DNA of 64,000 bases, from contig MNVE01000009.1 of NCBI GenBank assembly GCA_001871475.1, forward strand, positions 85,120 through 149,119. Reading direction: 5' to 3'. The notes beneath the pieces were generated by a model. It did no database searches. It saw only the letters and a list, made by a program, of their open reading frames with translations, and was not told where the DNA came from. The position numbers were made by a program, and so were the translations under genes. This document shows positions 12,201-53,762 of this stretch, one piece after another (positions within the stretch are counted from its first letter, which is position 1; every line of letters starts with the position of its first letter). The DNA comes from Candidatus Micrarchaeota archaeon CG1_02_47_40. Its GTDB lineage: Archaea; Micrarchaeota; Micrarchaeia; Anstonellales; CG1-02-47-40.

Positions 12201-15200
12201 GTTCAGGAAGTTGTAGGTGGCATTTTCATAGCCTTCTGTCCAGGATTCGCCGGAGCATTCAGCGTCGTCGCAGGAGCGGGCGGACATATTTAGGCGATAG
12301 GCTCCCCTCTGGTACATTGTGACTATTTCGGTCGGCGTCAGGGCGCGGTTGAATGTCGCAAGCTCGTCTATCCTGCCGTTGAAAAATACGCCTGCATGGT
12401 AGGTGCCGCTGCCGCTGTTTCTGCCAGGGCATGCTCCGACAAGCTGGATTATAACTGGCCTTGGGTCAAAATTTGTCATCCATCCTACGTAGATTCCATT
12501 GACATATGCATAATAATTAGTGACCCTGCGCAGGCATATATGCGACCATTTATTTACGGGCACGTAACTATTATACTGTATCTCGGGAGTAGCAGCACCG
12601 TTTGTCACATACGCGGAGCCCTTGTCAAATCGCAGAGCCCAACTGCCTTCTTGCCAGTTTGACGCTCCGTAGATGGTCTGGGCGGCATTGTCGGAGGTAG
12701 GGTATATCCAGGCGCAGATTGTGAAGGCTGCGGTCGCCGAAATCGGACCGCCGGAAGTGGTAACCCGGACATAATCATTTCCGTCAAAACTGCCGGCATA
12801 GCTGCCGAATTTGGATGAGTTTGTGAATGTGGCGCCAAAAGCAGTCGGGTTGTACCCGGAACTGCTGGTATCCGTCCAGGCGTTGTTCGTGTGAATCAGC
12901 AGGGTATTTCCGCCCATGTTTGCCCCGCCCTGGACGGTTTCAACCTGCCTGTTGTCCGGCAGTTCTTCCCCATAAGGGAATGCCTCGCTCCAGTTTGCGG
13001 ATGTCCAGTTCACGGCTGTTGAGCCGTCAAATATCCTTGAGGTGTAGGTTCCGTCGCTTGTGTACTGGGAGCCGGCAGGGGTCAGGGTTATGTTGCCGCT
13101 TTGGCTGGCTATGGAAACGCCGGCAGGCGTTCCAAAGGCAAAGTCTGCCTGGCTGGTTTCGGAGAAGGAGTTTGCCTGCCCGTTGATTTCAATCGCAGGC
13201 GAGCCGACGGCGTTTGCATATGAAACGTTTGCCAGATACGTGCTGAATAGGCGGACGCCGGCTCCTGCGGTTGAAGTCGCATTTGAGTTTTCCAGCAGGC
13301 TGTAAGCCCCGCCGAGGAGGACTGCCGTGCCGTTTGCATTTGAAACCGCAGAAGAGTTTATTATGAGGCTGCCGGAATTGAGGGGAGCTGACTCGGAAAT
13401 GAACATCCCGTACCCGTTTGAAATCCCATCCCCATACCTTGAGGTGAAGGCGCTTGTGTTGAGCACTGTAGAGCTGCCTGCCGTAGAGTAGATGCCGGTT
13501 GAGTAATTCTCTATTCTGCAATTCAATATAGTGGTGTTGAAGGAATCTGAATAAATCCCGTAAGTGTTTGTGGTGTTTGTGCCGTTAAGGATGAAACTGC
13601 TCCCGCAGTCTATGGTGTTGTTTCCCAGGTTGTTTGTCAGGTTGTAGGCTGATTTCGTGTTTGAGGAGGCATAGGTGCTGTTGAAGAGGTTGGAGGAGGA
13701 AGAGCTTGCGATAATTGCGTCTTGCGAATTGGAGATGGCTGATGAGCCGATGATTTGAGTGTAGTTTGAGCCAGTGGAGAGGCAGATGCCATAGCCGGAG
13801 GTTGAGGTGAAGTTTGAGTTTGAGATTGTGTTGTAGTTTGCACTGGCGCGCAGCAGTATTCCTTTTCCGTTTGCGTCCGTTTCATCTCCGGACCTCGTAG
13901 TGAATGCGGTTGTGTCGGTAATGGTTCCGTTGTCTGCGCCGTTTAAGTATATTCCGGTTGAGAAATTTTCTATTCTGCAGTTTTGTATGGTAGTGTTGAA
14001 TGAGATTGAGTAAATCCCGTAAGTGTCCGTGGCGTTGTTTCCGTTTAACATGTATCCCTGGCAGTCAAGGGTTATGTTTTCTGCCGTGATGTTTATGCAC
14101 CCTAATGAGGCGGAGGTTGAGAAGGACTCGTTAAGGACGTAGCTCCTTCCGCTTATGTTAAGATTCGTGCAGCTGCGTATGTTTGTGGAAACGAACAGCA
14201 CGGAAGTTGTGTTCCTTCCAACCACTCCGTACGCGCCGCCTATGTTGGTGGTTTCATTGAAGTAGGTGGAATTCACTATCAGGGTGTAATTGCCTGGTTC
14301 GGTTGGCACTGTGAAGGAGGAATTGTAATGCCCTGTGTCGTTTGTTGTCCCGCTAACGGCAAGGGTTTCATACCCGTTCCAATCCTTCAGGTAAACGTCA
14401 TACGCATAGCCTGACAGATTCGTCCTGTTCATGTAGTTTGAATACCTGTTCGTGAAGTTGAATTTTCCGTAAACGAAAACCTCGTCGCCGGCGAACATGG
14501 CGTTTGTGTTGAGGGAGATTGAGGCGTTCAGGAGAGGGATTGACTGGATGGGCGCGGAGTCCGAGGAGGCGGAGCCGTTCCACTTGGTTTTTGTGCTTGC
14601 CTGATATGGGAGCGCGCCGCCTATTGAGGCGTCCGCGTAATTGTCCGCATTCGTATCCAGTATGTTGGGCCAGTATGAGTTGATGTCGTCGTAGTAGTTT
14701 CCCCGGTCTACAGCCCCGACGGTTTCCTCAAAGTCGTTTCCCGAAGTCGCATGGGTGTTTACATAATATGTGCTTGCGTTAAGCAGGTAGTTGCCGTATA
14801 TGTAATTGCTGTTTGCCTCCAGCCGGATGCTCGTGTTCCCGCCTTCTATCGTGTTGTTGATGATTGAGTTGTATAATGCGGAGTTGATGAGGCGGATGCC
14901 GGTGGCGCTGGAATTTTTCAGTATGATGTGGTTGTTGGTTATGTTTGTGTACCTGTAGTAGTAAAGGTAGACTGCCGGATTTGCCGAATACGAGGTTATC
15001 TTGTTATTGGAGAAAACGTCATGGGTTATTATGCTGCCCGTATCGTGGGCAGAGGAGATATACAGCGCGGAGCTTTCGTTTGCGGTAAAGTTGTTGTAGG
15101 AGACGTTGCTGTCAAAGAACATGGAGGTATGCATGCCGTAGCCGGTTGCGCGGATGGTGTTGGATTTTATAGTGTGGAAGGACGCATTTGAGTTGCCGCT

Positions 15201-16967
15201 GTAATTGGAGTAGAAGGCGGTTCCGTTTGAGTAGATATTATTGCCGGTGATGTTGTTGCTGCTTGTTAGATTGTTGAAGTATATTGCGTAGCCGCTGTTG
15301 GTGTTCTTGTAGAAGGTATTGTCCCTGATGGTGCTGTAATTTGCCCCGTGGAAATGCGCCCCGTAGTAAAAGCCGCTTATGATGCAGTTTCGGATGGTGG
15401 TGTTTGTACCATTTGAGTAGACAGCTGACGCGCCTGGAGTTGTTTCGCCGGTGTTGGTGATGGTGTGCCCCTGGCAGTCTAATGTAATATTCTCTCCTGT
15501 CACGTTGAAGCAGGTGCCTCCGCTGTTTGGGTCGGCGTTGAGGTAGAAGATTTTATCCCGAACGTCGGGGAAGTTTGCAAGCGCCTGGCAGCCGGAGATT
15601 ATTTCCACCGCCTCACCTGAATTGTATCTTGCGCCGATGGGACCCCAGTCATAATAGCCTCCCGATAGGGAATAGGGATAGTCTCCTCCTATGTCTCCGT
15701 AGTTGTCAGCAGGAGAATAGTCATAGATTTCCTTTGTCAGTATGTTGTCGTAGTAGTTTCCTTGCGCTGTTCCTCCTGCTGTTGTGTTGAAGGTGTTTGA
15801 CGCACCGCCAAGATTGTATATGTAAGTGGAGGCGCGGTAAAGGTAATTGTGGAAGATAGAGTTGTTGGTTGAATCAGATGAAGGTATGTAGATGCCATAG
15901 GTTGAGGCATTTATAGTTGTATTTCGTATTATAGTATTGTTTGAACGGGTGGTGATGAGGATGCCGGCGCTGGAGGTGGAGGTGAATGTTGAGTTTATGA
16001 TTGAATTGTTTGAGCTGGAGTGGACGACGATGCCGGCGCTGATGGTGGAGGTGCCGGTTGAGTTTATGATTTGATTGTAATTGGAATTGGAGATGAGATA
16101 GATAGCGGGATAAGTAGAAGTGCCGGTTGAGTTTATGATTGAGTTGTTTGAGCTGGAGGTGAGGTAAATGCCGTAGCTGGTGTTGGAGGTGCCGGTTGAG
16201 TTTATGATTGAGTTGTTTGAGCTGGAGGAGAGGCTGATGCCGAGACCGGTGTTTGAGATGCCCATTAGGTTTATTATGTTGTTGTTTGAACTGGAGGAGA
16301 GTCCGATGCCGGGGCTTATGCGGGCTGAGCCATTGGAGTTTATGATTGAGTTGTTTGAGCTGAAGGTGAGGAAGATGCCACTGCTGGTGTTAGAGGTTCC
16401 TGTTGAGCCTGTAATGTTGTTGTTTGAGCTTGAAAGGAGGTTGATGCCCTGTTGAGAGTTTGAACTGCCTGTTGAGTTTATGATTTGGATGTAGTTTGCA
16501 TCTTTTAGGCTGATGGCGGAGGAACCGGAGGCTATATCTGCAGAAACATTTTGTATACGCCCGTTGTCGGCATAATAAAAATAGATGGCATAGTAAAACT
16601 CATTTATTTTTATATTTTTCACAGTCGTGCCGGAAACTGTTGAATAAACGCCGTAGCTTGAAGCCGCGCCTGTTCCATTTACATCATGCCCCTGCCCATC
16701 CAGCACCACGTTCACAGCAGTTACGGTAAAGCAGGTGGTGCTTCTGCCGGTTATATCTGCCGTAAGCGTGTAAGTTCCCGCCGTGTCCAGCGTCTGGCAG
16801 GTGGAGATAGGTCCCGGAGTGCTTGCGAAAAGGGCGGGAGAGAGCAAGAGGAATAGGAAAATCAGCGACTTCCATTTTCTCCCGTTTAGCATGAGAAGAA
16901 ATGAGTTTAAGATATTTATAAGGCTTATTATAAAAAAGTCCGAAGACTTTTTTAGACTTGACTGCAA
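3249..16967 (-). CDS. Giant (4572 aa by ORF) surface protein: signal peptide, beta-helix/LamG/Ig-like sequon-rich ectodomain, one TM, cytoplasmic P-loop ATPase. Probable real start is Met26 at 16892.
   Basis: Uninterrupted 13.7-kb ORF. KWKSLIFLFLLLSPALFAS is a signal-like segment. 22-23 aa periodic IINSTGTSN-type repeats (PbH1-like). Very dense N-x-S/T sequons. C-terminal TM plus Walker A/B. A TATA-like box lies ~28 nt upstream of the ATG at 16892. Confidence 0.9.
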   Translation of the reverse strand: MQSSLKKSSDFFIISLINILNSFLLMLNGRKWKSLIFLFLLLSPALFASTPGPISTCQTLDTAGTYTLTADITGRSTTCFTVTAVNVVLDGQGHDVNGTGAASSYGVYSTVSGTTVKNIKINEFYYAIYFYYADNGRIQNVSADIASGSSAISLKDANYIQIINSTGSSNSQQGINLLSSSNNNITGSTGTSNTSSGIFLTFSSNNSIINSNGSARISPGIGLSSSSNNNIINLMGISNTGLGISLSSSSNNSIINSTGTSNTSYGIYLTSSSNNSIINSTGTSTYPAIYLISNSNYNQIINSTGTSTISAGIVVHSSSNNSIINSTFTSTSSAGILITTRSNNTIIRNTTINASTYGIYIPSSDSTNNSIFHNYLYRASTYIYNLGGASNTFNTTAGGTAQGNYYDNILTKEIYDYSPADNYGDIGGDYPYSLSGGYYDWGPIGARYNSGEAVEIISGCQALANFPDVRDKIFYLNADPNSGGTCFNVTGENITLDCQGHTITNTGETTPGASAVYSNGTNTTIRNCIISGFYYGAHFHGANYSTIRDNTFYKNTNSGYAIYFNNLTSSNNITGNNIYSNGTAFYSNYSGNSNASFHTIKSNTIRATGYGMHTSMFFDSNVSYNNFTANESSALYISSAHDTGSIITHDVFSNNKITSYSANPAVYLYYYRYTNITNNHIILKNSSATGIRLINSALYNSIINNTIEGGNTSIRLEANSNYIYGNYLLNASTYYVNTHATSGNDFEETVGAVDRGNYYDDINSYWPNILDTNADNYADASIGGALPYQASTKTKWNGSASSDSAPIQSIPLLNASISLNTNAMFAGDEVFVYGKFNFTNRYSNYMNRTNLSGYAYDVYLKDWNGYETLAVSGTTNDTGHYNSSFTVPTEPGNYTLIVNSTYFNETTNIGGAYGVVGRNTTSVLFVSTNIRSCTNLNISGRSYVLNESFSTSASLGCINITAENITLDCQGYMLNGNNATDTYGIYSISFNTTIQNCRIENFSTGIYLNGADNGTITDTTAFTTRSGDETDANGKGILLRASANYNTISNSNFTSTSGYGICLSTGSNYTQIIGSSAISNSQDAIIASSSSSNLFNSTYASSNTKSAYNLTNNLGNNTIDCGSSFILNGTNTTNTYGIYSDSFNTTILNCRIENYSTGIYSTAGSSTVLNTSAFTSRYGDGISNGYGMFISESAPLNSGSLIINSSAVSNANGTAVLLGGAYSLLENSNATSTAGAGVRLFSTYLANVSYANAVGSPAIEINGQANSFSETSQADFAFGTPAGVSIASQSGNITLTPAGSQYTSDGTYTSRIFDGSTAVNWTSANWSEAFPYGEELPDNRQVETVQGGANMGGNTLLIHTNNAWTDTSSSGYNPTAFGATFTNSSKFGSYAGSFDGNDYVRVTTSGGPISATAAFTICAWIYPTSDNAAQTIYGASNWQEGSWALRFDKGSAYVTNGAATPEIQYNSYVPVNKWSHICLRRVTNYYAYVNGIYVGWMTNFDPRPVIIQLVGACPGRNSGSGTYHAGVFFNGRIDELATFNRALTPTEIVTMYQRGAYRLNMSARSCDDAECSGESWTEGYENATYNFLNLSQNRYFQYKFSFNTSNISSSPVLNDVSISYLRPENLNLVANSNATSVSGSGIYINGSSNNSIADSISSSTSGTGILLNQSSGSVIAGGSASSGTGSALALFASPYSFVENLSAVSTSGNSTYIFSSNYSNFTNNTISGAYGFYMRNTKSVFLVGNAVSATINSFYLNGTSETANTSLSQIENNTINNPINLTEFTYENFGCGSSGSTVSDSGTGNAVYAGSTCGAVITITAVPSFVVKGANVSVNGTATFGDSLILNKAIAIFFNGTQVADSNMAPAGPPQTNSTGRYNYTFNATNVSWTFSSFRYASGEYNISVNITEAARTANATKNITLFEYYPSLATNRSSYDSAERMGTTITLATDNAGLGNEPADAIFACIGARTAPSGCSVFSLNLANPSEGTYTNTTNLTNIAPGNYSLYMNVSIQGIVLTNITNITVDNDTPRVENVSTSGLNAYNYTSASSSYTVTFDIGENIALSSVLCEQNGVNYTADAGAGNSHSCSLTAPSAGNYNITIYANDTARHSNSSRFEMSTVATTTVSMVLSGSTLPPISITDLSPGYYFIYNITLNDTGSGKAHLANVSNSTNTYSQYINAVTSTENCTESINYSYGTCVVSFNITVDELTPQATYYIYFNGRFTNNDLTIGNLAEKALPISITGNPILTTIELLNTSINHSETDRFNISLNSTGNAEIVDTEITYIEETALTGWFVFAPAAIASLGVGERTNLSLNITVPAHYAPGNYTGHFDLNISNGNDVRINISISVPASLTWNLSPFNQTNTSAIDQTQSTAPLGTARINNTGNVELNFTIGYTGSFVGTAVDPESNPSAIQVPAGVSYNLTPNFIGSLITGSWTLNITLTNTSASPTTNYTTMYLVVEDQPPVVAPQINITNASNYAPINVTDANIQIRVNFSASDDQTQIDYNNVHCNFTLNSATEKVSATRVGLLNSFYCLYTPQWGGAYNISVHVPDTGNKYGNGSILFIVYGNTSMRAGSNITTAVISGMSQSSPKTFSFEISANNTGYGTAINATGYGLPSNSSWGSTICNFTNITNNSKQYANITITIPAGTEPGTYYVTPYIRWTNPDRSNFTNYTADITVSVQGNPELLLQFPSAANISQGSSSNFTLIVNSTGISNVSGINLTCSGAQCTAFSVAFNESALFSLGIGQAKPITVTLTASAGKATGAYPNLYLNATSTEGASHQFTSTINVLADYNWTVSRSSINTSNVINAAGTLATTISNNGNENLAFLFNLSGNATGIFVLEDASQTVLAGTNYTLNITYSLPGEPASYYGNLTLNETHEGATLNYTIPIDYRVFVGSMNISPNSTVKQVNISAGDTIYINATILAGDDYVNENATFSVQVNGTSCPVSAYANFSGQNLWQINCTAPSANDGQWHNLTVIANYSTMDILITNTTQSSLHYLDITLPAFLASRINISGTSAFFQINASDNVNVSTVKAYVLSQNITVNHSYNYTYEFNMSGLSVGDYDVYYWISDAQGNSNTSSGYFEIWTDAGFAGDIKNSSSQPVSAGFTLYRPATSQVLQNFSTNSNGAYSAVIHSRTYDAVVFSSQMSMNITLQEIELSSYSDSLDFDRIGKWESSLVNGVNGIGVRTNFTGGAAISISFDSGELSGAEEYIKMYKCAGWNFSTKTCSGTWGMLTTVVDKVYDRVYANVSQFSDTDGETAYMLGETVTTSGQPDISLSSIDSLSVQHNATGRTNFTITSSGTGTALNIYAVCSSGTICEMADTAMAPAYIASIAQGGIETVNINVSIPYAHAPGTYLANIIAYGDGISNKTAQLQVTVPTNASWSINQTFFNATVGTGETTIGYARIYNNGNVNLRLNSSTNDTSAYANETDIQIPKNSTSHTIRIYSNATAPGNMTVGITIANASASPASLTLNATLRVINMTVLVSSPNSSLPAAEIIPGATLNISANAYLEGAELTSGATWSAAVGGADCTSPSYSYSTSAWLISCLAPDITTLNNSIVVEAQYGGYGGADTEAGAVIYTDTTPPSIIISAASAYKGAVVAISLLPSDNAGVSGITANLTHPNGTVDNLTLTYSAPYYTNSFATIDAEYGMYTIRAWANDTSGLNGTNSSTFNVMQGAYIAGNFTSANGSTPTVEIWILDNASNVMFVFNTSGIFNQSVNATNIVNLQIKAFGQSITLTGVNMSQNVSSLFSIDSLTPNYVGGGALTAVTLTNISTNYTGGSITMDYSGTSYASESNVGLYKCSTWDFATRLCTSGWERLTSVSVDRLNHKITANISSFSAYAAAEYICGDGVCHSAYGEGSANCPADCPVTTQTVSVTTGGSSGGSSSYSTTNVEGASEAQLQEIQDKIDELQGMQPDSEEFNQQLSLLQEMYENLSEKMRSGANISTEGMETMTNSIYFELYPGEETTTSTTIKNTLGETSTISIQTAGNIKSYVYSEQSSITLEPYAESEVALFVSLPADTKPGVYYGSIEFENEAGGRIQVPFNLRVLQLKDRLLDLKIQPIDSTVEPGGKIRIETNIYNLGEARRVDAQLKVQLIQQENEKIVAELEEALAIETSLSSIKTMDVPADTPEGKYVLRAVATYPVSSGLSREATSISTIDVRRSLTPLFVFLFAVVLAAGGYAMWKRMEKEKKRFLVKIDFSKLPKFDERAAFLGKVAETNVRAAFPVDKLVMHALVAGASGSGKTVAAQDIVEEVLKKKISVVVFDPTAQWTGFLRKNSVKEMLSLYKDFGMNASDACAFPGNVFIVKDPNRKINIKELMKPGEITIFALNNFKSVDIETIVANTIEEVFALNLEESKELRLLIVFDEVHRLLPKFGGTGAGFKNIERSVREFRKWGVGMLLVSQVLSDFVGEIKTNISTEVQLRTKYEEDLNRIKMKYGEEILKYIVKAPVGVGMLQNAEFNRGNPYFVLFRPLLHSIVRLSDKALEKYHLYNERIMKVIEGMEKLKAKEVDVFDVELELKLARDKLNKGSFEVVEIYLESLEKKVGEMLKKL
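3252..4361 (-). other. C-terminal cytoplasmic P-loop NTPase domain of the giant protein (HerA/FtsK/VirB4-like, DUF87-like)
   Basis: Walker A VAGASGSGKT at nt 4179-4202 (checked on DNA). Walker B LLIVFDEVH at about nt 3804-3830. Followed by FRKWGVGMLLVSQ and a coiled-coil tail. Confidence 0.7.
4362..4424 (-). other. Single predicted transmembrane helix separating the ectodomain from the ATPase domain
   Basis: LTPLFVFLFAVVLAAGGYAMW followed by the positively charged KRMEKEKKRF (positive-inside rule puts the ATPase in the cytoplasm). Confidence 0.7.
12300..12810 (-). other. LamG / concanavalin-like jelly-roll domain inside the giant protein (approximate bounds)
   Basis: GSFDGNDYVRVTTSGGPISATAAFTICAWIYPTS...WSHICLRRV...FFNGRIDELATFNRALTPTEIVTMYQRG is a typical Laminin_G_3 pattern. 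Confidence 0.6.
15770..16790 (-). other. First parallel beta-helix (PbH1-like) repeat block of the giant protein (approximate); the DNA shows 66-69 nt tandem periodicity
   Basis: Repeated ...SSSNNSIINSTGTSNTS.GI.L... units. The DNA unit ggtgccggttgagtttatgattgagttgtttgagctggag recurs between about 15950 and 16460. Confidence 0.65.
16912..16925 (-). promoter_or_regulatory. TATA-box-like element for the giant gene
   Basis: The minus strand reads ATAATAAGCCTTATAAATATCTTAAACTCATTTCTTCTC-ATG(16892). CTTATAAATA lies ~28 nt upstream of the ATG, suggesting a short or absent leader. Confidence 0.4.
16932..16953 (-). terminator. Symmetric A6/T6-flanked hairpin, possibly a terminator for the upstream ATPase gene
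   Basis: AAAAAAGTC-CGAA-GACTTTTTT: a 9-bp stem with an oligo-T run on either strand. Confidence 0.4.
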
Positions 16968-16973
16968 GTCAAG
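16957..16973. repeat. TTGAC..GTCAA hairpin element (single copy) upstream of the giant gene
   Basis: AGA-CTTGACT-GCA-AGTCAAG-CAGATAA has the same flanks (AGAC...GCAGA) as the copy at 53519-53538. Confidence 0.7.
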
Positions 16974-16981
16974 CAGATAAA

Positions 16982-17073
16982 TTCTGCCTTTATGGAGGCA
17001 TGAAAAGTGCTGTTTTCTTGCCTTTATATGGGCATGAAATCAATAGTTTTCTTGCCTTTATGAAGGCATGAAG
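16982..17073. repeat. Three direct repeats (33-34 bp period), each with a TGCCTTT-N-AGGCATGAA palindromic core
   Basis: ttctgcctttatggaggcatgaaaa / ttcttgcctttatatgggcatgaaat / ttcttgcctttatgaaggcatgaag, starting at 16982, 17015 and 17049. Confidence 0.8.
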
Positions 17074-17084
17074 ACGCATAACCG

Positions 17085-18368
17085 TCAGGATAATTTCAGA
17101 AGAAGGAAAACGTCCAGGGGAATATAGCGTATAATCTTTCCGTTTATCTCCTTCTCGTCAAAAAGCTCCTTTGTCACCATAATCCCCTCTTTCACCTTAT
17201 ACTGTTTCATGTAATAAAGAAGATTGGCAGTGTCCTGGCTCGTGATTGCAGACTGATACTTCACTTCTATTGGAAAAGAGGTTATGAAGTCCACCTCTCT
17301 TTTTTGAGAATCCCTGTAGAAGGCAGTTTTCATACAGCTCAACTTGTCATAAACGGCAGTTTCAGCCGACTGCCCAAGGGAAGGGCTCTCGCTGATTGCA
17401 TTGTAAATGGATGCGGTTTTGGTAAATATTTTTTTCTGCTTCTTCAGAGCCTTCTGAAAAGAGCCTCTTGAATAGAGTATATCCACAAGATATGCCTTTT
17501 GAAGATAAAGAAGATAGTCTGAAACCGCATGACGGCTCATCTGGAGCGCCTCGGCAAAATTCACTTCAGTATAAAGCTGGGAGGAATTTGCCGCGCATAG
17601 TTTGAGCAAATCATATAATTTGGAAGGATTATCTATCCGAAAAGTGTATGGAATGTCATCAAATACGATTTTCTCAATAGTGCTTGTGCGTATATAACCA
17701 GAAGCGGTTTTTTCATCCATCGTTACTATTTCGGGGAACGAGCCCTTTTTGAGGAATTCTTCTGCATCCTCCCTATGCCTTTTTTTCACCCTGAAAGCGT
17801 CTTTTAGCTTCGGGGTTTCTGGCGCCTCTCCTTTCATCTCAATATACTCATCAAACCGCAGAGGAGGGACATAATGCTCAAACAATCTGCCGCTCAAACT
17901 TTCCACTCCCTTTTTTATCATCAGCGAGGAAGAGCCGCTTACGATGAATTTTGCCTTTTTTTGGTCATGGTATCGTTTCAGCACTCCAGCCCAATCCTCA
18001 ACCCTGTAAATCTCATCAAGCGCTATGGTTGGATGTTCGGACTCATTTGTGAATACTTCCAGCACGTTCTTCAGTGTTTCCGTATTGACGTATTTTTTCT
18101 CGTCAAAGGAGAAATAAAAGGAGTTTTCTCCAAGAAGCTGTTTTATGAGCGTGCTTTTGCCGACTCTCCGCAAACCAGTGATGGCGGTTATAAGCCCTTT
18201 CTGAAGGCTTTCTTTTATTTCTGAAAATACCTTTCTTTTATATTCCGGAACTTCCTCCCTGCCTCCGGTATTTATCTGGGAAAAGTCCATTAGCTCCTTC
18301 TTCGTGGGTATTGCCATGTGTTCTTTTAAGAGCACAAAACTTAAAAATGTGTCCTTAAAGGGGCGCAA
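17085..18368 (-). CDS. AAA+ ATPase with a C-terminal PD-(D/E)xK-like module (COG1373 / AAA_14 + DUF4143-like); probable start at Met18, position 18317
   Basis: Walker A ITGLRRVGKSTL, Walker B IALDEIY, C-terminal REVDFITSFPIEVKY (D...ExK). The codons upstream of 18317 lie in the repeat array. Confidence 0.75.
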   Translation of the reverse strand: MRPFKDTFLSFVLLKEHMAIPTKKELMDFSQINTGGREEVPEYKRKVFSEIKESLQKGLITAITGLRRVGKSTLIKQLLGENSFYFSFDEKKYVNTETLKNVLEVFTNESEHPTIALDEIYRVEDWAGVLKRYHDQKKAKFIVSGSSSLMIKKGVESLSGRLFEHYVPPLRFDEYIEMKGEAPETPKLKDAFRVKKRHREDAEEFLKKGSFPEIVTMDEKTASGYIRTSTIEKIVFDDIPYTFRIDNPSKLYDLLKLCAANSSQLYTEVNFAEALQMSRHAVSDYLLYLQKAYLVDILYSRGSFQKALKKQKKIFTKTASIYNAISESPSLGQSAETAVYDKLSCMKTAFYRDSQKREVDFITSFPIEVKYQSAITSQDTANLLYYMKQYKVKEGIMVTKELFDEKEINGKIIRYIPLDVFLLLKLS

Positions 18369-18465
18369 AACTGGAAGATATGCTCTTGTAAGAGCAGAAA
18401 ACTTGAGAATATGCTCTTATAAGGACACGACCCTTGGAAATATGCCCTTAAAGGGGCATGTTTGT
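18316..18465. repeat. Five tandem 31-bp repeats, each with a 16-nt palindrome (consensus ATATGCYCTTNNAAGRGCA..AAAACTTG)
   Basis: Copies start at 18316, 18347, 18378, 18409 and 18440, an exact 31-bp period. Examples: tgctcttgtaagagca, tgcccttaaaggggca. The core is related to the array at 16982-17073. Confidence 0.85.
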
Positions 18466-18635: not shown

Positions 18636-20102
18636 ATGGAACCGGAAAAAGAGCAGGAACTTACCAGACTGCTGACGAATAAGCTCAACCCTTGGTGGAT
18701 AACCTCGCAGGCAGCCGCGCCGGCTTTTCAGCGAAGCGATTTTGATTATCTTTTTGAAAAAATCAAAACCTCGCGTGCGATTACCCTTATCGGACCGAGA
18801 CAGGTGGGAAAGACGACCATCTCAAAGCAGATAATCCGCCGCCTGCTTGAGCAGGGCATTCCGGCCAACCGAATCATTTACGCCGATTTCTCCGACAAGG
18901 AGATACGCCTCCAATGCGCGCACCCGCTTTACGACGTCATAAGCCTATATCGGCGGAACATTCTCCAGGAGGATTTTGAACAGCTAAAATCAGATGCATA
19001 CCTCTTTCTTGACGAGGTGCAGAAAGACGATGAATGGGCGGAAACGGTCAAGTCGTATATTGACCATTACGAAAAACTGCACATACTCTCAACAGGCTCA
19101 AGCAGCCTGAACGTTTCACAAAAAAACAAGGAAACACTTCCAGGCAGGTCGCTTCTTCAGGTCATGCTCCCGCTGAAATTCGCTGATTTTTTGCGCATCA
19201 GGAGTTTTAAAGGAATGTTCCGTCACGATGCCGATGCATTGAGAAACAGCGGCAAGGAAATGCGCAGTTGGTTTCTTCAGGCTCTCCAAAAAAGGGACTT
19301 TTCCCGTTTTGAACAGCTCTGCTTGGAGCGGAGGAGCCTGCTTTCACGGCAGGAAACCGACATTGAAGCAGAATTTGGCAATTACCTTTCCCGCGGCGGC
19401 TATCCCCAGATTGCGATAAGCGACGATGTTTCGCAGTGCAATTCCCTGCTTAACAGCTACGCCACAGATGTAATTGTAAAAGATTTGGCAGGTGCCAGCC
19501 GCGGAATCAGGGATTACGATTTGGCTGAAAAAACCTTGTATCTGCTTGCCAAAATATCCGGGGAGGAATTGAATGTTAATGAATTGCTCAAGCACCTTCA
19601 GGGCAGGCAGTACATAACGGTAAGAAAATACATCGATTTGTTCGATGAGGCATGCCTGATAAACGAAATCCCGATTTACAGCGGGACGAAACTCGGAAGC
19701 ACCAAGCACCCTAAAATCTATTTTCAGGATGTTGGGATGCGCAACGCGCTCTGCGGGCTTCTTGATGCCCCCTTCAGTGAAACGGATAAGGGGCATCTTG
19801 CTGAAACAATTGCCTGCGACCACATAAACAGGCTGTCATTCAAGCTCAATTTGAACATCCGCGGAAACGTTTATTGCTGGAAAAGCTCCAAGGGTGAGGT
19901 GGATTTCGTGGTTCGGCTGCCTCGCTTCAGGCTTGAGCTGCCCATTGAATCAAAATACCGGCGCAATCCCGAATCCGCTCCCATGCGCGAATTCCTGGAG
20001 AGCCGAAAACAGCCGCTCGGGTTGATTCTGACAAGGGACGTGCTCAAATTAGACAGGGGAGTGTTATTCATGCCAATGTGGGCGTTTGCACTAATGTGCT
20101 GA
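18636..20102 (+). CDS. AAA+ ATPase with a C-terminal PD-(D/E)xK-like module (COG1373-like), a paralog of 17085-18317
   Basis: Walker A LIGPRQVGKTT, Walker B LFLDEVQ, C-terminal GEVDFVVRLPRFRLELPIESKY. Confidence 0.75.
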   Translation: MEPEKEQELTRLLTNKLNPWWITSQAAAPAFQRSDFDYLFEKIKTSRAITLIGPRQVGKTTISKQIIRRLLEQGIPANRIIYADFSDKEIRLQCAHPLYDVISLYRRNILQEDFEQLKSDAYLFLDEVQKDDEWAETVKSYIDHYEKLHILSTGSSSLNVSQKNKETLPGRSLLQVMLPLKFADFLRIRSFKGMFRHDADALRNSGKEMRSWFLQALQKRDFSRFEQLCLERRSLLSRQETDIEAEFGNYLSRGGYPQIAISDDVSQCNSLLNSYATDVIVKDLAGASRGIRDYDLAEKTLYLLAKISGEELNVNELLKHLQGRQYITVRKYIDLFDEACLINEIPIYSGTKLGSTKHPKIYFQDVGMRNALCGLLDAPFSETDKGHLAETIACDHINRLSFKLNLNIRGNVYCWKSSKGEVDFVVRLPRFRLELPIESKYRRNPESAPMREFLESRKQPLGLILTRDVLKLDRGVLFMPMWAFALMC

Positions 20103-28017: not shown

Positions 28018-28097
28018 AATCGACCTCCTTATCCTCCCTTATTCCACTGCGCGTATTAATGCGGAAGTAAGGTATAAAAAACCGAGAGGTTTTTAGA

Positions 28098-28189
28098 TTT
28101 GCAAGTTTTTCCGAAACTTGCAAAATTTTGAAAAAGCGCGGAGCAGCCGCCCATAAGCGCTTTTTCAAATGTTTTGCCCGGAGGGCAAA
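28098..28189. promoter_or_regulatory. Cluster of three strong hairpins between the divergent nop5 and glyS starts
   Basis: TTTGCAAGTTT-ttccg-AAACTTGCAAA (28098-28124). TTGAAAAAGCGC...GCGCTTTTTCAA (28128-28168, 12-bp stem). TTTGCCC-gga-GGGCAAA (28173-28189). Confidence 0.5.
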
Positions 28190-32743: not shown

Positions 32744-33436
32744 GTGCATAAAATGGCAGGAAAATACGTGAAGTTTCAGACTCCGCAGGCACTGCTTGAA
32801 AAGATAAAGCAGGCGCTTTCCCGCGCAAGGGAAACCGGCGGAAGGGTAAGAAAGGGAATTAACGAAGTGACAAAATGCATAGAATCCTCAAGGCCCGCCC
32901 TTGTAGTGATGGCGGAGGATGTTTCCCCGGAGGAAATAATACTGCACATTCCCATGCTCTGCGAGGAGAAGGAGTTAGTGTATGCTTACCTCCCAACAAG
33001 AGCAGAGGTTGGCGCTGCGGCAGGCTTGAACGTTCCCTGTTCGTGCGTTGCAATAGAAAAGGAGGGGCAGGCAGGCGAATTGGTAAGAGATGTGAAGGAA
33101 GGGCTTGAGCCGGTTTTCCCAAAGAAAAAGGAGGAGAAAAGAGAAGAGGCAAAGAAAGAGGAGAAGAAGGCAGAGGCAAAGCACGAAGAGAAAAAGCACG
33201 AGGAAAGGAAAGAAGGCGGAGAGAAGCCGATTGAGCAGACGAAGTCTGCGAAAGATTTGAAAGTTCCAAAGAACTTTCAAAATTTTGACGCAGAGGCGTC
33301 AAAAGTCTTGACGCAAAGCGTCAAGCAGAAAAAGCCCCACGCCCCTAAGAAGAAAAAGGAAGGCGCGCCTGCACAGGAGGAAAAAAAGGAAGCGCCGGTT
33401 GCAGCGCAGGAAGGCGCGCCCGCAGCAGGGCAGTAA
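32744..33436 (+). CDS. rpl7ae: Ribosomal protein L7Ae with a ~105-aa KE-rich C-terminal extension
   Basis: RKGINEVTKCIESSRPALVVMAEDVSPEEIILHIPMLCEEKELVYAYLPTRAEVGAAAG is the core L7Ae fold. It is followed by PKKKEEKREEAKKEEKK...AAQEGAPAAGQ. Confidence 0.85.
   Translation: MHKMAGKYVKFQTPQALLEKIKQALSRARETGGRVRKGINEVTKCIESSRPALVVMAEDVSPEEIILHIPMLCEEKELVYAYLPTRAEVGAAAGLNVPCSCVAIEKEGQAGELVRDVKEGLEPVFPKKKEEKREEAKKEEKKAEAKHEEKKHEERKEGGEKPIEQTKSAKDLKVPKNFQNFDAEASKVLTQSVKQKKPHAPKKKKEGAPAQEEKKEAPVAAQEGAPAAGQ
33283..33325. repeat. Pair of TTGAC..GTCAA hairpins inside the L7Ae coding extension
   Basis: TTTTGACGC-agag-GCGTCAAAA (33283-33304) and CTTGACGC-aaa-GCGTCAAG (33307-33325), followed by CAGAA. 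Confidence 0.75.
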
Positions 33437-35020: not shown

Positions 35021-38000
35021 ATGCTGCGCCAGCCGATAGTTTGTGTATTGGGCCATGTTGACCACGGGAAATGCGTTGCTCCAGATACTGTCATTCAGCT
35101 AGGGGACGGAAGGCTTTTGCAAGCAAAAGAGCTGTATGAAGCTTATGCCGAAAAGGGAGCGAAGATGCAGATAGACGACGGAACTGTTGTAGAGTTGGAA
35201 GAGGGACCTGAAGTTTTTAGTTTTGATGGAAAGAAAATAGTAAGAAAAAGAGTATCGCATGTGTGGAAGAGAAACTCGCCAAAGAATATGACTAGGGTTG
35301 GGCTTGCAAGCGGTGACACGCTGACAGTAACTCCGGAGCATCCGTTCTACGCAGCGAGCGCGGAAGCGCCGCATGGATGGAAGCAGGCAGGCACGCTGAA
35401 AGAAGGCGATTTCGTCCTCGTTGCAGGAAAGTTGGAACTGCAAGAAGCGCCCATAAGCCGGCTGAAGGAAGAAATCGCAAAGAAATTGATGGTTGCTGAA
35501 TCCTTTGTTGTCTTTGTTGACAAGGAAAAGGGAGCCGAGTTTTTTAGAAAGATTTCTGATGCAAATTTAGATTCAATGAGAAAGAGGGAGCTATTCTCAA
35601 CAAATCCATATTGCTGTGTAAAGGAAAGCAGGTTCCGCGCAGTTGATTTTTTTAGGCTCTGCTCTTATCTTGGTTTTACGGCTGAATGCGCTTATGATAT
35701 GATAGGGCACATAAAGAATTCGTCTAGAAAATGGAGAGCAGGGCATACCAGCAACAAAATGCGCCTTCCTAGAGATGAAGCAGATTTTTCCGCCATGGCG
35801 TATGTTCTTGGATGTGTGCAGGGAGACGGATGTCTTTACTCGAAGAGGGTGATGCTTCATAACAATGATAGTGAGATACATGAAGAATATATGAAAGGAT
35901 TAAAGCAGGTGTTTGGACTGGATGCCAAGGTCGTGCAGAATCACACCTGCAAGACAGTCGTAAGCACCGGAGGCATGACGCTCGGCAGGTTTTTTATTGA
36001 AATTTTTGGGCTTCCATTCAAAAATAAGAGCGAATCGATAATCGTCCCTGATATGCTTTTACTGCGCAACGACACTACGGCTTCTTTCATAAGGGGATGG
36101 TTTGATACAGACGGTTATGTTTCTGAAATTAACAACTGCATAGAAATAACGAGCAAAAGCAAAAGAATGGTCAAAATGGCTGCGGCATGTCTTCTTAGAT
36201 TCGGCATACTTGGAGTTATTTATGAAAAAAATGGGTATTGGACTCTAAGAATAGCCAATGCGCCATATGTGAAAAAATTTCTTGAAAATATAGGTTCTAA
36301 CTTAAAATTCAAAAGAAACAGGATGATCGCAGTAATTCCAAAAACATCTACAAGCCGTGTTTTTGATATGTTACCGCTTGATGGCGCGCATCTGAAGGGG
36401 AATGTTTCGGTAAATGATTGTCAAGTGCCTTATGCAAGCAGGTATTTTGAGTACAGCTGCCTGTCCAGAGGCACGGTTATGAAGATGCTTGTATATGGCG
36501 CCTCTGAAAAAACAAAAACAGAAATGCGGGCTTTTACTGAAGAGAGTATCCGCTTCGTCAGAGTAAGGACTGTTAAGGCTGTTGAACCGGAATCTGAATT
36601 CGTATATGACTTTTCAGTCCCCCAAACAAAAAATTTCATAGCTGAAAGAACGGTTCTGCATAATACATCCTTGCTAGATGCCATAAGGAAAACCTCCCTT
36701 GCAAAAAAAGAGGCGGGCTTGATTACACAGCACATAGGCGCAAGCGAGGTGCCGAGGGATGCGATTGGGGAGGTGTGCGGCGACGCGCTTACACGGATGA
36801 AAATAAAGCTTGAGATTCCGGGAATTCTTTTTATTGACACGCCAGGGCATGCGGCATTCTCAAACCTGCGCGAGCGGGGGGGAAGCATCGCGGACATTGC
36901 GGTGCTTGTCATTGACATAAATCAGGGCTTTCAGCCCCAGACGATTGAGAGCATAGGGATACTGAAAGGGTTCAAAACGCCCTTCATAATTGCCGCAAAC
37001 AAGGTGGATGTGATTGACGGATGGAAGGGCGGTTCGGGAAATTGCATTGCGCAAAGCATCAAAAGGCAGAATGAGCGAGTGCAGGCAAGGTTGGATGAGC
37101 TTCTTTACACTCTTGTGGGAAGAATGGGGGAGCTTGGAATGAATGCGGAGCGCTTTGACAGGGTAACAGATTTCACAAAACAGATTGCGCTCGTGCCCGT
37201 TTCCGCAAAAACAGGCGAGGGGGTGCTTGAGCTTCTTCTTTTCTTGGCAGGGCTTTCGCAGAAATTCCTTGAAAGCGGGCTTGACGCAAAAGAGGACAGC
37301 CCTGCGCGCGGAAGCATTTTAGAGGTTAGGGAGGAGCGCGGGCTGGGGACGATAATAGATGCGATAATTTACGAGGGGATGCTGAAGCAGAATGATACAA
37401 TTGTGTTTGGCACCATAAACGGCGCGGAAAAAACAAAGGTGCGCTCCATCATAAAGCCAAAGCCTGCCTCAAAAATAGTGAATCCACAGGAAAAATATGA
37501 TTATCCGAAAGAAGCGGTTGCCGCGTGCGGGGTAAGGATATTCGCACCTGGGCTTGAGGATGCGCTTTCCGGCTCTCCTTTTGCAATCGCAAACACGCCC
37601 GAAGAGCAGACCGCACAGTCTGAAGTAATAGAAGGGCAGATAAAAAAAGTGGTGTTTGAAAAAAGCGAGCACGGGGTTGTGGCAAAGGCGGAGAGCTTAG
37701 GCTCGCTTGAAGCAATGCTCAACCTGCTTGAGGTGGAAAAAATACCCGTAAGAAAATCCGGGATTGGGGAGATTTCAAAAAAGGATGCGCTTGAGGCAAG
37801 GCGCTCCGGGGGGGAGGATGCGGCGCTTTCTGCCGTATTCGGATTTGGAGTGAAAGCCAGCAAGGAAGCTGAAGAGGAGGAGGCGGCAGGAGGAGTGAAA
37901 ATACTTGCAAATGAAGTTATTTACTCCCTTATTGAAGATTATAAGAAATGGGTTTGCTCCTGCCGCGAGCGCGAGAAATGCGAGCTTCTCTCCTCGCACG

Positions 38001-38380
38001 TCTACCCCGTTAAGCTCAAAATACTGCCCGGCTGCTGCTTTAGGAAAAGCAACCCCGCCATTTTCGGAGTGGATGTGCTTGCCGGAAAGCTTCTTGTAAA
38101 ATGCCCGCTTATGAACAGCAGGGGAAAGGAAATAGGAGAGGTGAAGGGGATACAAAATAAAAATGAAGCAGCCCAGTCGGCAGAAAAAGGGGAGCAGGTG
38201 GCAATCTCCATTGAAGGAGCGGCTTTTGGGAAGGATATTGGGGAAGGGGATGTACTTTATGCGCACCTGACTGAAAGGGAATGGGGGGAAATTTCAAAAA
38301 AATGCCGCTGTGCGCTTGGCAAGGAAGAAGAAAAACTGCTTGGGGAAATATTGGGTATTACCTCCACTTCGCATTTTTGA
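35021..38380 (+). CDS. infB: Translation initiation factor aIF5B (IF-2), interrupted by an intein in the P-loop
   Basis: Exteins: MLRQPIVCVLGHVDHGK / TSLLDAIRKT...QHIGASEV...FIDTPGHAAF...AANKVD. Confidence 0.9.
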   Translation: MLRQPIVCVLGHVDHGKCVAPDTVIQLGDGRLLQAKELYEAYAEKGAKMQIDDGTVVELEEGPEVFSFDGKKIVRKRVSHVWKRNSPKNMTRVGLASGDTLTVTPEHPFYAASAEAPHGWKQAGTLKEGDFVLVAGKLELQEAPISRLKEEIAKKLMVAESFVVFVDKEKGAEFFRKISDANLDSMRKRELFSTNPYCCVKESRFRAVDFFRLCSYLGFTAECAYDMIGHIKNSSRKWRAGHTSNKMRLPRDEADFSAMAYVLGCVQGDGCLYSKRVMLHNNDSEIHEEYMKGLKQVFGLDAKVVQNHTCKTVVSTGGMTLGRFFIEIFGLPFKNKSESIIVPDMLLLRNDTTASFIRGWFDTDGYVSEINNCIEITSKSKRMVKMAAACLLRFGILGVIYEKNGYWTLRIANAPYVKKFLENIGSNLKFKRNRMIAVIPKTSTSRVFDMLPLDGAHLKGNVSVNDCQVPYASRYFEYSCLSRGTVMKMLVYGASEKTKTEMRAFTEESIRFVRVRTVKAVEPESEFVYDFSVPQTKNFIAERTVLHNTSLLDAIRKTSLAKKEAGLITQHIGASEVPRDAIGEVCGDALTRMKIKLEIPGILFIDTPGHAAFSNLRERGGSIADIAVLVIDINQGFQPQTIESIGILKGFKTPFIIAANKVDVIDGWKGGSGNCIAQSIKRQNERVQARLDELLYTLVGRMGELGMNAERFDRVTDFTKQIALVPVSAKTGEGVLELLLFLAGLSQKFLESGLDAKEDSPARGSILEVREERGLGTIIDAIIYEGMLKQNDTIVFGTINGAEKTKVRSIIKPKPASKIVNPQEKYDYPKEAVAACGVRIFAPGLEDALSGSPFAIANTPEEQTAQSEVIEGQIKKVVFEKSEHGVVAKAESLGSLEAMLNLLEVEKIPVRKSGIGEISKKDALEARRSGGEDAALSAVFGFGVKASKEAEEEEAAGGVKILANEVIYSLIEDYKKWVCSCREREKCELLSSHVYPVKLKILPGCCFRKSNPAIFGVDVLAGKLLVKCPLMNSRGKEIGEVKGIQNKNEAAQSAEKGEQVAISIEGAAFGKDIGEGDVLYAHLTEREWGEISKKCRCALGKEEEKLLGEILGITSTSHF
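35072..36664 (+). mobile_element. Intein (531 aa) with a LAGLIDADG homing endonuclease, inserted at GHVDHGK/T
   Basis: Starts at Cys (CVAPDTVIQLGDG) and ends VLHN, followed by Thr +1. DOD motifs YVLGCVQGDGCLY and FIRGWFDTDGYV. Boundaries were checked codon by codon on the DNA. Confidence 0.85.
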
Positions 38381-52321: not shown

Positions 52322-52461
52322 GCCCCCATAGTTTAGCGGATAGAATGGAGGCCTCCGGAGCCTCTGACCGGAGTTCGAAACCTAAGGGGGGTTCCACCCC
52401 CCTTAAGGTCTCAACCCCCCCCAAAGAACGTGGGTTGGTACTGAAAATCTCCGTGGGGGCG
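52322..52461 (+). tRNA. tRNA-Arg (CCG) with a ~68-nt intron in the T-loop
   Basis: GCCCCCA-TA-GTTT-AGCGGATA-GAAT-G-GAGGC-CTCCGGA-GCCTC-TGAC-CGGAG-TTCGAAA-[intron, about 52381-52448]-CTCCG-TGGGGGC-G, then TTTTT. The mature length is 72 nt. Confidence 0.8.
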
Positions 52462-53072: not shown

Positions 53073-53213
53073 AAAATCATCTGTTGTATTTATTGTTTTG
53101 TGAAGGAATAAATATTTATATACCTGCCTTCATAACCCTATTTGGCAGTGGCAGGCGGGCAACTAACGCTATTTCTTCCGAAAGGAAGAAGAAAGTGAGG
53201 AAACCGCAAAGGG

Positions 53214-53287
53214 TTGACACCGAAGGTGTCAAATTTTGACGCGGAAGCGTCAAAGGTTTCCGAACGCCTTGACACTCGGGTGTCAAG
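53214..53287 (+). repeat. Three TTGAC..GTCAA hairpins inserted in the RNase P RNA between two AGTGAGGAA direct repeats
   Basis: TTGACACC-gaa-GGTGTCAA (53214-53232). TTGACGC-ggaa-GCGTCAA (53236-53253). CTTGACAC-tcgg-GTGTCAAG (53268-53287). AGTGAGGAA occurs at 53194-53202 and at 53291-53299. Confidence 0.8.
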
Positions 53288-53497
53288 TGAAGTGAGGAAG
53301 TTCCGCCCACTCCTGAAAGATAAATTTGAGTCAGGCTGGCGGCTCCCTTTGATGGGAAGGCGCAAGGCGTGCTTGGGGCAGCGGGAGAAATCCTGCGCAG
53401 CCCTCGGGCATTCTTTGCGCTCCGCTTTTGCATGGCTCTTTTTTGCCTTTCATAAAGCCCTTAACCGCTTAAGGCGGTATCCGGAACAGAAAAAGAG

Positions 53498-53538
53498 TTG
53501 ACGGCGAAGCCGTCAAGACTTGACTCCAAAGAGTCAAG
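53498..53538 (+). repeat. Two further TTGAC..GTCAA hairpins inside the RNase P RNA
   Basis: TTGACGGC-gaa-GCCGTCAA (53498-53516). CTTGACTC-caaa-GAGTCAAG (53519-53538), followed by CAGAA. Confidence 0.8.
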
Positions 53539-53762
53539 CAGAACTTCCATGCGCGGATGAAAATGAGGAAACGAGACGCGCATGTGTATGATGAAAACGC
53601 CGGTGCGAAGGGCGGGGTGCAAGGCCGATTAGGCCGCTAAGTCGAATGTTGCCTTAAAGCGCTTCGAGAGAGGCGCTTGAAACAAAAGGCGGGCTATGCC
53701 CTGCCGCTGCCATTATATTCACTAACCCTGCTTTAAAAAAGAAAGAAAAAAAGAAAGGAGTT

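Follow-up and report, generated by a model that had tools for sequence, protein, structure and literature searches.

Double-hairpin repeats in the RNase P RNA gene, the L7Ae gene and the spacers of a Micrarchaeota genome

The hairpins with TTGAC...GTCAA feet that occur in a stretch of 64,000 nucleotides from Candidatus Micrarchaeota archaeon CG1_02_47_40 (contig MNVE01000009.1, positions 85,120 to 149,119; the whole stretch is called the window below) are real, non-random copies of a small double-hairpin repeat family. Copies lie within the gene for RNase P RNA, in frame within the gene for L7Ae and near a giant gene. The module recurs at unrelated loci of a single genome and in further Micrarchaeota, and relatives lack the copies in their orthologous genes for RNase P RNA and L7Ae. 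We conclude that the family is probably a non-autonomous, selfish or neutral repeat of Micrarchaeota. A preliminary description of the window had proposed either a mobile or repetitive element like REPs (repetitive extragenic palindromes) or MITEs (miniature inverted-repeat transposable elements), or a protein-recognition hairpin shared by L7Ae mRNA, RNase P RNA and the giant-gene transcript; the repeat-element alternative stands, whereas the regulatory link between L7Ae and RNase P does not. Judged by its L7Ae homologues, the window belongs to Micrarchaeota, close to 'Candidatus Anstonellales'.

Direct reading of the sequence and an exhaustive scan for perfect hairpins recovered all eight TTGAC-stem-loop-GTCAA hairpins of the preliminary description, at the same coordinates. 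The design is constant (8/8): a TTGAC/GTCAA foot, one to three more complementary pairs and a loop of 3-4 nt.

53214-53232, plus strand: hairpin TTGAC-ACC-GAA-GGT-GTCAA, in the RNase P RNA
53236-53253, plus strand: hairpin with inner GC/GGAA/GC, in the RNase P RNA
53268-53287, plus strand: hairpin with inner AC/TCGG/GT, written CTTGACAC-TCGG-GTGTCAAG, in the RNase P RNA; the third TTGAC hairpin of the block inserted in the P3 region
53498-53516, plus strand: hairpin with inner GGC/GAA/GCC, in the RNase P RNA
53519-53538, plus strand: hairpin with inner TC/CAAA/GA, in the RNase P RNA
33283-33304, plus strand: hairpin with inner GC/AGAG/GC, in the L7Ae open reading frame (ORF)
33307-33325, plus strand: hairpin with inner GC/AAA/GC, in the L7Ae ORF
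16957-16973, unstranded: hairpin with the single variable pair T/GCA/A, near the giant gene

The pattern TTGAC-N7-12-GTCAA matched nine times in the window, compared with 0.26 +/- 0.5 matches expected from 100 dinucleotide shuffles (maximum 2); the comparison with shuffled controls that had been suggested earlier, run here on the window, thus puts the pattern far above chance. Perfect hairpins with stems of at least 8 bp numbered 14 where 5.1 +/- 2.1 were expected, an approximately threefold excess. Because an independent contig from another Joint Genome Institute (JGI) sample (locus L149) is 100% identical across 1440 nt, L7Ae hairpins included, the hairpins are not an artefact of the source assembly. 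The shared flanks reported for them are also present (AATTTTGACGC..GCGTCAAA(A/G)GT, GTCAAGCAGAA, and AGACTTGACT..AGTCAAGCAGAT), and CAGA(A/T)A forms the end of four clusters in the window. Nearby, in the same clusters, are perfect hairpins with other feet that the preliminary description had not listed (16931-16954, 33256-33281 and 28077-28189).

A search of 185,579 species genomes for the tandem TTGAC-hairpin pattern returned 91 loci. Seven came from five other Micrarchaeota metagenome-assembled genomes (MAGs), and all seven are hairpin pairs, perfect in six cases and with one mismatch in the second hairpin of the seventh (L059); few of the remaining 84 loci are palindromic. One MAG carries three near-identical composite copies on three contigs. 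In a metagenome scan with a stricter linker, which gave 33 loci, the family members are only L101, L108 and L130, the other loci being mostly unrelated direct-repeat (iteron-like) arrays. L108 carries the module in frame within the class III signal peptides of two adjacent pilin-like genes. A viral origin was considered and rejected, as none of 12 loci from the IMG/VR pattern scan matches the family: they have no 3-4-nt loops and no common linker or flanks, and the sole viral locus with short complementary inner ends (L145) is an identical tandem direct repeat.

The consensus unit is AAGG(G)-[TTGACA..TGTCAA]-ATT-[TTGAC(G/A)..GTCAA]-A(A/G)G. Written as RNA, a first hairpin (H1, UUGACA-stem-loop-UGUCAA) is joined head to tail by a 3-nt linker, mostly AUU, to a second (H2, UUGAC(G/A)-stem-loop-GUCAA), with flanks and linker common across genomes (AAGGG-H1-ATT-H2-AAAGGTTT). 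An outer stem often encloses both hairpins (GGAAACC/GGUUUCC in the window, AAAGC/GCUUU in L059, L130 and L090, GAAACUUU/AAAGUUUC in L108), giving a Y-shaped module of 50-75 nt to which extra single hairpins are often appended. One hairpin of the window, TTGACGGCGAAGCCGTCAA, recurs letter for letter in another genome. Conservation of feet, linker and adjoining flanks extends over genomes of 41-57% GC, and the modules sit in unrelated gene contexts, mostly intergenic in the other genomes. A covariance model of the module (R1) likewise found it outside the source genome.

The variable stem bases covary, as had been claimed: 97.5% of inner positions are paired and six pairs are changed on both sides, a level reached by none of 500 shuffles and compared with 22-46% in slid registers. 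Such covariation does not prove that the RNA has a function, since the arms of palindromic DNA repeats remain complementary as well. The pairing also bears on the idea that the module is a double-stranded operator, in which four alternating TTGAC half-sites bind a dimeric or tetrameric transcription factor, a nucleoid protein or a restriction-modification component. The junction GTCAAATTTTGAC is a perfect palindrome and the most conserved part of the unit, and several copies adjoin TATA-like boxes; however, duplex binding needs no self-complementary spacer, yet nearly all inner positions pair, and there are copies within a ribozyme gene and coding sequence that have no evident operator role. 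We therefore regard an operator as very unlikely.

The RNase P RNA carries two of the modules. That the hairpins lie within this RNA, as had been stated, was borne out by alignment to orthologues and not by Rfam: a scan of the window found no Rfam family at its gathering score, and archaeal RNase P RNA (RF00373) gave only a partial match of 25 bits at 53530-53708 (gathering score 84). Syntenic loci, fetched through the neighbouring 224-aa gene, contain RNase P RNAs at the same place in two relatives, one of 289 nt (L133:6830-7118, 72.8 bits to RF00373) and one of 409 nt (L131:7711-8119, 77.1 bits), both below 84. The following features were assigned.

53144-53712, plus strand: RNase P RNA gene, 569 nt, carrying two hairpin modules (from orthologue alignment)
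53113-53120, plus strand: TATA-like box (ATTTATAT), ~25 nt ahead of the 5' end of RNase P RNA, a putative promoter element read from the sequence
53144-53156 with 53700-53712, plus strand: P1, a 13-bp helix that forms in the predicted fold
53159-53163 with 53650-53654, plus strand: P2, GGCAA / UUGCC
53183-53192, plus strand: direct repeat of 10 nt (AAGTGAGGAA) on either side of the P3 insertion, left copy; the longest flank repeat (p ~0.001 against shuffles)
53190-53262, plus strand: double-hairpin module copy 1, P3 region (H1 53214-53232, linker, H2 53235-53254)
53289-53313, plus strand: conserved region CR-I and the P4 5' strand
53320-53470, plus strand: further extra sequence in the specificity domain, ~140 nt, with imperfect long hairpins in the predicted fold
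53484-53493, plus strand: CR-II (GGAACAGAAA)
53498-53538, plus strand: double-hairpin module copy 2 (H1 53498-53516, GA, H2 53519-53538)
53636-53697, plus strand: CR-IV and CR-V

In the alignment of the window with L131 and L133 the 5' ends are identical (AGUGGCAGGCGGGCAACUAACGCU), and CR-I (GAAGUGAGGAAGUUCCGCCCACUCC), CR-II, CR-IV, CR-V and the 3' end are conserved, as is a kink-turn-like (K-turn-like) GAUGA..UGAGGAA region. P1, P2, P4 and CR-I to CR-V follow in canonical order, and P4 shows a compensatory change (C-G in the window and L131, U-A in L133), so that by structure the molecule is an archaeal RNase P RNA. The 13-bp P1, the syntenic orthologues and the conserved regions together identify 53144-53712 as one RNase P RNA of 569 nt. 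It resembles archaeal type A RNase P RNA (RF00373) in having P1, P2, P3, CR-I to CR-V and the P4 pairing, but differs in being nearly twice as long as the minimal orthologue because of the hairpin insertions.

These blocks are lineage-specific insertions around a conserved core. Module copy 1, with an outer stem of GGAAACC (53190-53196) and GGUUUCC (53256-53262), scores 63.2 bits with R1 (E 4.5e-16) and is predicted to fold as a three-way junction; the three hairpins from 53214 to 53287 make up a block of ~100 nt in the P3 region, directly 5' of CR-I, that is absent from L131 and L133. The right copy of its flanking repeat (53289-53298) belongs to the functional CR-I, and the orthologues have a single copy. 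Module copy 2 (51.4 bits) lies between CR-II (ACAGAAA) and the P12 5' strand, is followed by CAGAAC and also has no counterpart in L131 or L133, as judged by realignment by eye of a block that MAFFT mis-registers. The extra block at 53320-53470 has no counterpart in the 289-nt orthologue. We also considered a protein-coding reading of the repeat, in which the peptide NFDAEASKV occurs both in the L7Ae tail and in an ORF at 53214-53501, the encoding copies differing at three nucleotides, all of them synonymous. This reading was rejected because the ORF lies within the ribozyme and has no Pfam match; the open frame across the repeat is a property of the repeat sequence itself.

The second host is the L7Ae gene, where the hairpins had correctly been placed inside the ORF; they fall within its C-terminal Lys/Glu-rich extension, outside the L7Ae domain.

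32744-33436, plus strand: L7Ae gene, with Pfam Ribosomal_L7Ae at residues 20-113 and a Lys/Glu-rich C-terminal tail
33236-33321, plus strand: in-frame insertion of ~31 codons (IEQTKSAKDLKVPKNFQNFDAEASKVLTQSV) in L7Ae, with three tandem hairpins at 33256-33281, 33283-33304 and 33307-33325

The ~31-codon block is absent from all 11 aligned Micrarchaeota homologues and from L001 and L004 DNA; its hairpins at 33282-33328 score 27.3 bits with R1. Like both pilin inserts of L108, it is in frame and has no stop codons, so translation, not splicing, seems to deal with these inserts. This bears on the proposal that the blocks are bulge-helix-bulge introns, which the tRNA splicing endonuclease would remove from the two transcripts, RNase P RNA and L7Ae mRNA. 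The neighbouring tRNA-Arg gene has a probable hairpin-containing T-loop intron with a recognisable helix-bulge-helix motif, which suggests that the organism splices at non-canonical positions. However, a scan around all three insertions found no 4-bp central helix with 3-nt bulges and supporting helices, and the best case had four supporting pairs only and did not restore the orthologous junction; as a control, the L131 tRNA intron was the top match of the scan, and the window tRNA motif, which was not among the four matches listed, was confirmed by hand. Introns are thus a highly improbable explanation.

The tRNA-Arg(CCG) gene of the window (52322-52461) is itself unusual. Its T-loop insert of ~67 nt includes a perfect hairpin, TAAGGGGGG-TTCCA-CCCCCCTTA; the end of the gene is called wrongly by ARAGORN and Rfam, and the T-stem/acceptor 3' strand (CTCCGTGGGGGCG) resumes at 52449. 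In the L131 tRNA-Arg this position is occupied by an insert of 34 nt that shows a clean helix-bulge-helix (cagag-UUCG-aaa / CGAA-aau-CUCUG), and the L133 gene is uninterrupted. The insert is probably a non-canonical tRNA intron.

Two further hairpin clusters of the window are intergenic.

16931-16973, unstranded: two tandem hairpins, TAAAAAAGTC-CGAA-GACTTTTTTA and CTTGACT-GCA-AGTCAAG, followed by CAGATAAAT
28077-28189, unstranded: four tandem hairpins with other feet, in the divergent spacer between the Nop5 and class-II aminoacyl-tRNA synthetase genes (from the perfect-hairpin scan)

The first cluster lies in the interval from the stop of an AAA_14 gene (17085) to the giant gene's TATA box, both genes being on the minus strand. 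Since the giant gene is likely to start at an ATG near 16891 (MLNGRKWKSL..., signal-peptide-like) with a TATA-like box at 16912-16920, the hairpins are upstream of its promoter and not, as had been suggested, in its leader. The second cluster (hairpins at 28077-28094, 28098-28124, 28127-28169 and 28173-28189) ends in the same CAGATAAAT flank. The corresponding spacer is 62 nt and hairpin-free in L004; that of L001 measures 180 nt and contains, between duplicated TATAAAATAT, a hairpin insert of a different kind.

Other repeats are found around the first cluster. Two arrays of 3-5 tandem units of ~31 nt, each with a short hairpin (TGCCnTATAAAGGCA / ATGCCCTTAAAGGGGC..AAAAC), lie at 16985-17075 and 18316-18457, inverted on either side of the AAA_14/DUF4143 ATPase gene (17085-18368, minus strand), with a second AAA_14/DUF4143 gene at 18636-20102. 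Such arrays might mark the ends of a mobile cassette as terminal repeats, or else serve as operators. The giant ORF (3249-16967, minus strand, up to 4572 aa) encodes beta-helix/NosD repeats, a laminin-G-like domain and a HerA/DUF87-like ATPase region near its C-terminus; at 15915-16492 it has tandem repeats of 69 nt (23 aa), and another array, with a tandem unit of 29 nt, crosses its stop codon at 3089-3270.

The closest relative (GCA_040960315.1, loci L001 and L131) has 13 perfect hairpins where 1.4 are expected, and a double-hairpin family of its own, (T/C)CTTCAAAT-stem-ATTTGGAG(A/G)(G/C)-GTGC-stem-GCAC, also written CTTCAAAT..ATTTGGAGAG..GTGC..GCAC. Two copies of that family are within its RNase P RNA, at sites that differ from those of the window, and others are in spacers; a different hairpin family has therefore entered the RNase P RNA of the nearest relative independently. 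The more distant GCA_0388xxxxx genomes (L004-L006, L133-L135) are essentially hairpin-free, with a minimal RNase P RNA, a shorter L7Ae and the shortest spacer. Such a patchy pattern, family by lineage, is what repeated invasions predict, whereas a conserved RNase P/L7Ae motif would not produce it.

In L001 we also observed an exact direct repeat of ~80 nt (5270-5350 and 9065-9145), with the GC-rich hairpins TGCCGCGC-CTT-GCGCGGCA and CGACTGC-CCGG-GCAGTCG. The two copies bracket a segment of ~3.8 kb that contains an AbiEi/AbiEii toxin-antitoxin pair, which gives the segment the look of an island that has inserted there, with the repeats at its edges.

Archaeal RNase P is known to include L7Ae among its subunits, and the presence of one module in both partners could suggest a functional RNA motif, whose feet and linker are recognised by L7Ae or another Micrarchaeota RNA binder that co-regulates or scaffolds the carrier RNAs. 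Conservation of feet, linker and flanks across the whole GC range while the stems covary is consistent with this, as is the embedding of the module in a larger conserved structure in L059, L130 and L090; most copies could be transcribed in the sense direction of a neighbouring gene, although this is a weak point. However, the orthologous L7Ae and RNase P genes of relatives are without the module, an observation that the preliminary description had named among those that would speak against it, and the sister genome uses a different sequence family in the same manner. There is also no common logic to the locations, which include a ribozyme interior, a coding tail, signal peptides, sites upstream of promoters (that of the giant gene among them) and spaces between convergent genes, with most modules elsewhere in unrelated intergenic contexts. 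Finally, as had been noted, the stems are Watson-Crick and not K-turns: they are uninterrupted over 7-9 bp and close on 3-4-nt loops, and none of the hairpins contains an L7Ae-binding K-turn or K-loop (helix, 3-nt bulge or loop, tandem sheared G.A/A.G pairs). A functional motif of this kind appears unlikely.

The larger structure just mentioned is a conserved unit of ~150 nt around the module at L059 3246-3385, L130 1455-1625 (minus strand) and L090 640-786 (minus strand). Orthology of the three loci was rejected, their flanking genes being unrelated. Ahead of the module is a long helix, UUUGUUC.CUCGACC / GGUCGAG.GAACAAA, with compensatory changes noted by eye; RNAalifold recovered only the inner seven pairs, one of them doubly changed. 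Possible readings of the unit are a composite repeat of larger size and a structured RNA that has escaped annotation. Adjoining the module in L090 (470-620, minus strand) are two tandem units of ~75 nt, GCAGGG(A/G)..ATG(C/A)(A/T)CAGACC(G/A)CCTCTG(T/A)GTTCTGA, which resemble box C/D small RNAs in having a C-box-like AUGAUCA and a terminal CUGA.

A different possibility is that the hairpins are not mobile and were made in place by template switching, snap-back synthesis or slippage, their likeness reflecting the sequence bias of the process. Hairpins with many different feet cluster in tandem in the source genome and in relatives, flank duplications vary in length, no transposase is found among the window ORFs, and paralogous loops are sometimes reverse complements of one another (TTC versus GAA in the two L108 copies), a signature of inversion at DNA hairpins. 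Yet the unpaired linker and flanks (AAGGG..ATT..AAAGGTTT; GTCAAGCAGA) are common to unrelated loci and genomes, one MAG has its three near-identical composite copies, and a hairpin is the same in two genomes. The shared unpaired flanks, the near-identical copies and the identical hairpin argue for copying from a template rather than independent origin, and we consider formation in place quite unlikely.

Under the repeat-element reading that we favour, copies would spread within the genome as DNA, through an enzyme encoded outside the window that would recognise the conserved hairpin feet and linker. Distal stems and loops would then drift freely while the arms remain complementary, maintained perhaps by selection for foldability, by arm-to-arm templated repair of palindromic DNA, or by both. 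Insertions would survive only where a self-contained folded module does little harm, and such tolerant sites would include the P3 region, the CR-II/P12 junction, the disordered Lys/Glu-rich tail of L7Ae (in frame) and spacers beside promoters. Mature RNase P RNA and L7Ae mRNA probably still contain the elements, transcribed and not spliced out, as selfish or presumably neutral passengers that establish no regulatory link between L7Ae and RNase P. Insertion appears to occur at the DNA level. Direct repeats of 10-11 nt flank two insertions (p ~0.001 each), namely P3 (AAGTGAGGAA) and L108 (GCGATGGAATA / ATGGAATACC); TATAAAATAT flanks the L001 spacer insert and AAAATTT a single hairpin in the L131 RNase P RNA.

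Several points weigh against this reading. The other 12 of the 14 sites tested have no significant flanking direct repeat and repeat length is not uniform, so target-site duplication was rejected as a general feature, and a classical mechanism, whether cut-and-paste or by staggered cut, is not established. No transposase, integrase or HUH nuclease was found among the ~38 ORFs of the window. The ~150-nt unit of L059, L130 and L090 could be a functional RNA. The invariance of TTGAC/GTCAA elsewhere is partly forced by the search pattern, and R1 finds a diverged copy with altered feet at L001:6-50. All window counts refer to the 64-kb stretch of the source genome, copies per whole genome being outside their scope. 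A bolder version, which we hold to be doubtful, is that of an active mobile element in which a trans-acting enzyme recognises the TTGAC feet and linker of Y-shaped DNA or RNA, makes ~10-bp target duplications and colonises an essential ribozyme and coding sequences non-lethally, or else that the L059/L130/L090 unit is a new structured non-coding RNA and the source of the dispersed copies.

Known repeats offer several parallels. Like Rickettsia palindromic elements (RPEs) and intragenic REPs (Di Nocera et al. 2013, PMC3733652), the Micrarchaeota units are short, dispersed, multi-copy palindromes that lie mostly between genes and also in frame within ORFs, where they add peptide; family content differs between related species, and the CGTC class of REPs, too, has no known dedicated transposase. 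Tagged REPs carry an unpaired GTAG or CGTC tag and are typically inverted dimers, head-to-tail pairs being negligible, and GTAG REPs are linked to the RAYT tyrosine transposase (PMC3733652). The Micrarchaeota unit is instead a head-to-tail pair with paired TTGAC/GTCAA feet, a 3-nt linker and a constant H1-ATT-H2 order. It has no unpaired GTAG or CGTC tag (CGTC occurs only inside some stems, as GCGTCAA), and no Y1 or IS200-type (RAYT) transposase was found among the window ORFs. Moreover, the tagged REPs surveyed in PMC3733652 are all bacterial, whereas the TTGAC family is in DPANN archaea. RPEs were compared by kind and not by sequence, with no sequence similarity seen.

Another parallel is with mitochondrial elements, namely the double-hairpin elements (DHEs) of Allomyces, the GC clusters of yeast and the repetitive hairpin-forming elements (RHEs) of sponges (Erpenbeck et al. 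2009, PMC2800124). These have two adjacent short hairpins as the repeat unit; they enter spacers, variable regions of structural RNA genes and protein genes, and are patchy among close relatives, with different families per lineage and flanking duplications that are inconsistent or absent. Fungal mitochondrial hairpin elements are described there as staying in transcripts rather than being excised (PMC2800124, citing Paquin et al. 2000). They differ in belonging to eukaryote organelle genomes and not to a cellular archaeal chromosome, in having rRNA and not the RNase P ribozyme as host RNA, and in showing no sequence relationship. Prokaryotic MITEs are likewise small, non-coding, multi-copy and absent from orthologous sites, and ~10-nt direct repeats occur at two insertions here; but the Micrarchaeota element lacks terminal inverted repeats around a unique core, having local short hairpins throughout whose arms are its sole inverted repeats at the ends, its direct repeats are inconsistent in presence and length, and no related autonomous insertion sequence lies within the window. 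As dispersed, self-folding sequences that are absent from orthologous sites and lie in ORFs and structural RNA genes, the copies fall into an RPE-like or DHE-like functional class, which is not a homology family. By analogy, the element belongs with selfish hairpin repeats and probably works like REPs, RPEs and mitochondrial double-hairpin elements. We found no earlier report of such repeats in Micrarchaeota or DPANN archaea in the literature searched.

Two other genes of the window deserve mention. An aIF5B/IF-2 homologue of 1119 aa (35021-38380) contains an intein with a LAGLIDADG homing-endonuclease domain at residues ~34-548, and its orthologues in L001 (595 aa) and L004 (579 aa) are without it. 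An ORF at 1959-2996 (minus strand) matches Pfam Sigma-70 region 2 and region 4, unexpectedly for an archaeon, and its 3' end overlaps the 3' end of a convergent M42 aminopeptidase gene (1199-2242).

That selfish palindromic repeats can enter coding sequences and structural RNA genes is textbook knowledge for Rickettsia and for the mitochondria of fungi, yeast and sponges. The novelty here lies in the archaeal host, in a head-to-tail unit with a Y shape, and in an essential ribozyme that grew repeatedly and independently from 289 to 569 nt. Between them, the RNase P RNAs (289, 409 and 569 nt) carry independent insertions at no fewer than four positions while keeping an unchanged catalytic core, and illustrate how a ribozyme can naturally tolerate insertions. 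Standard covariance models miss this RNA in the three Micrarchaeota (25, 77.1 and 72.8 bits against 84), and gene callers will give inflated or odd proteins from such insertions, examples being the tail of L7Ae and the signal peptides of the pilins. Conservation of the feet and of the linker suggests a possible recognition protein. If the favoured reading is true, a reduced-genome, probably host-dependent archaeal lineage would join the hosts of such repeats, which would fit the idea that these elements thrive under weak selection.

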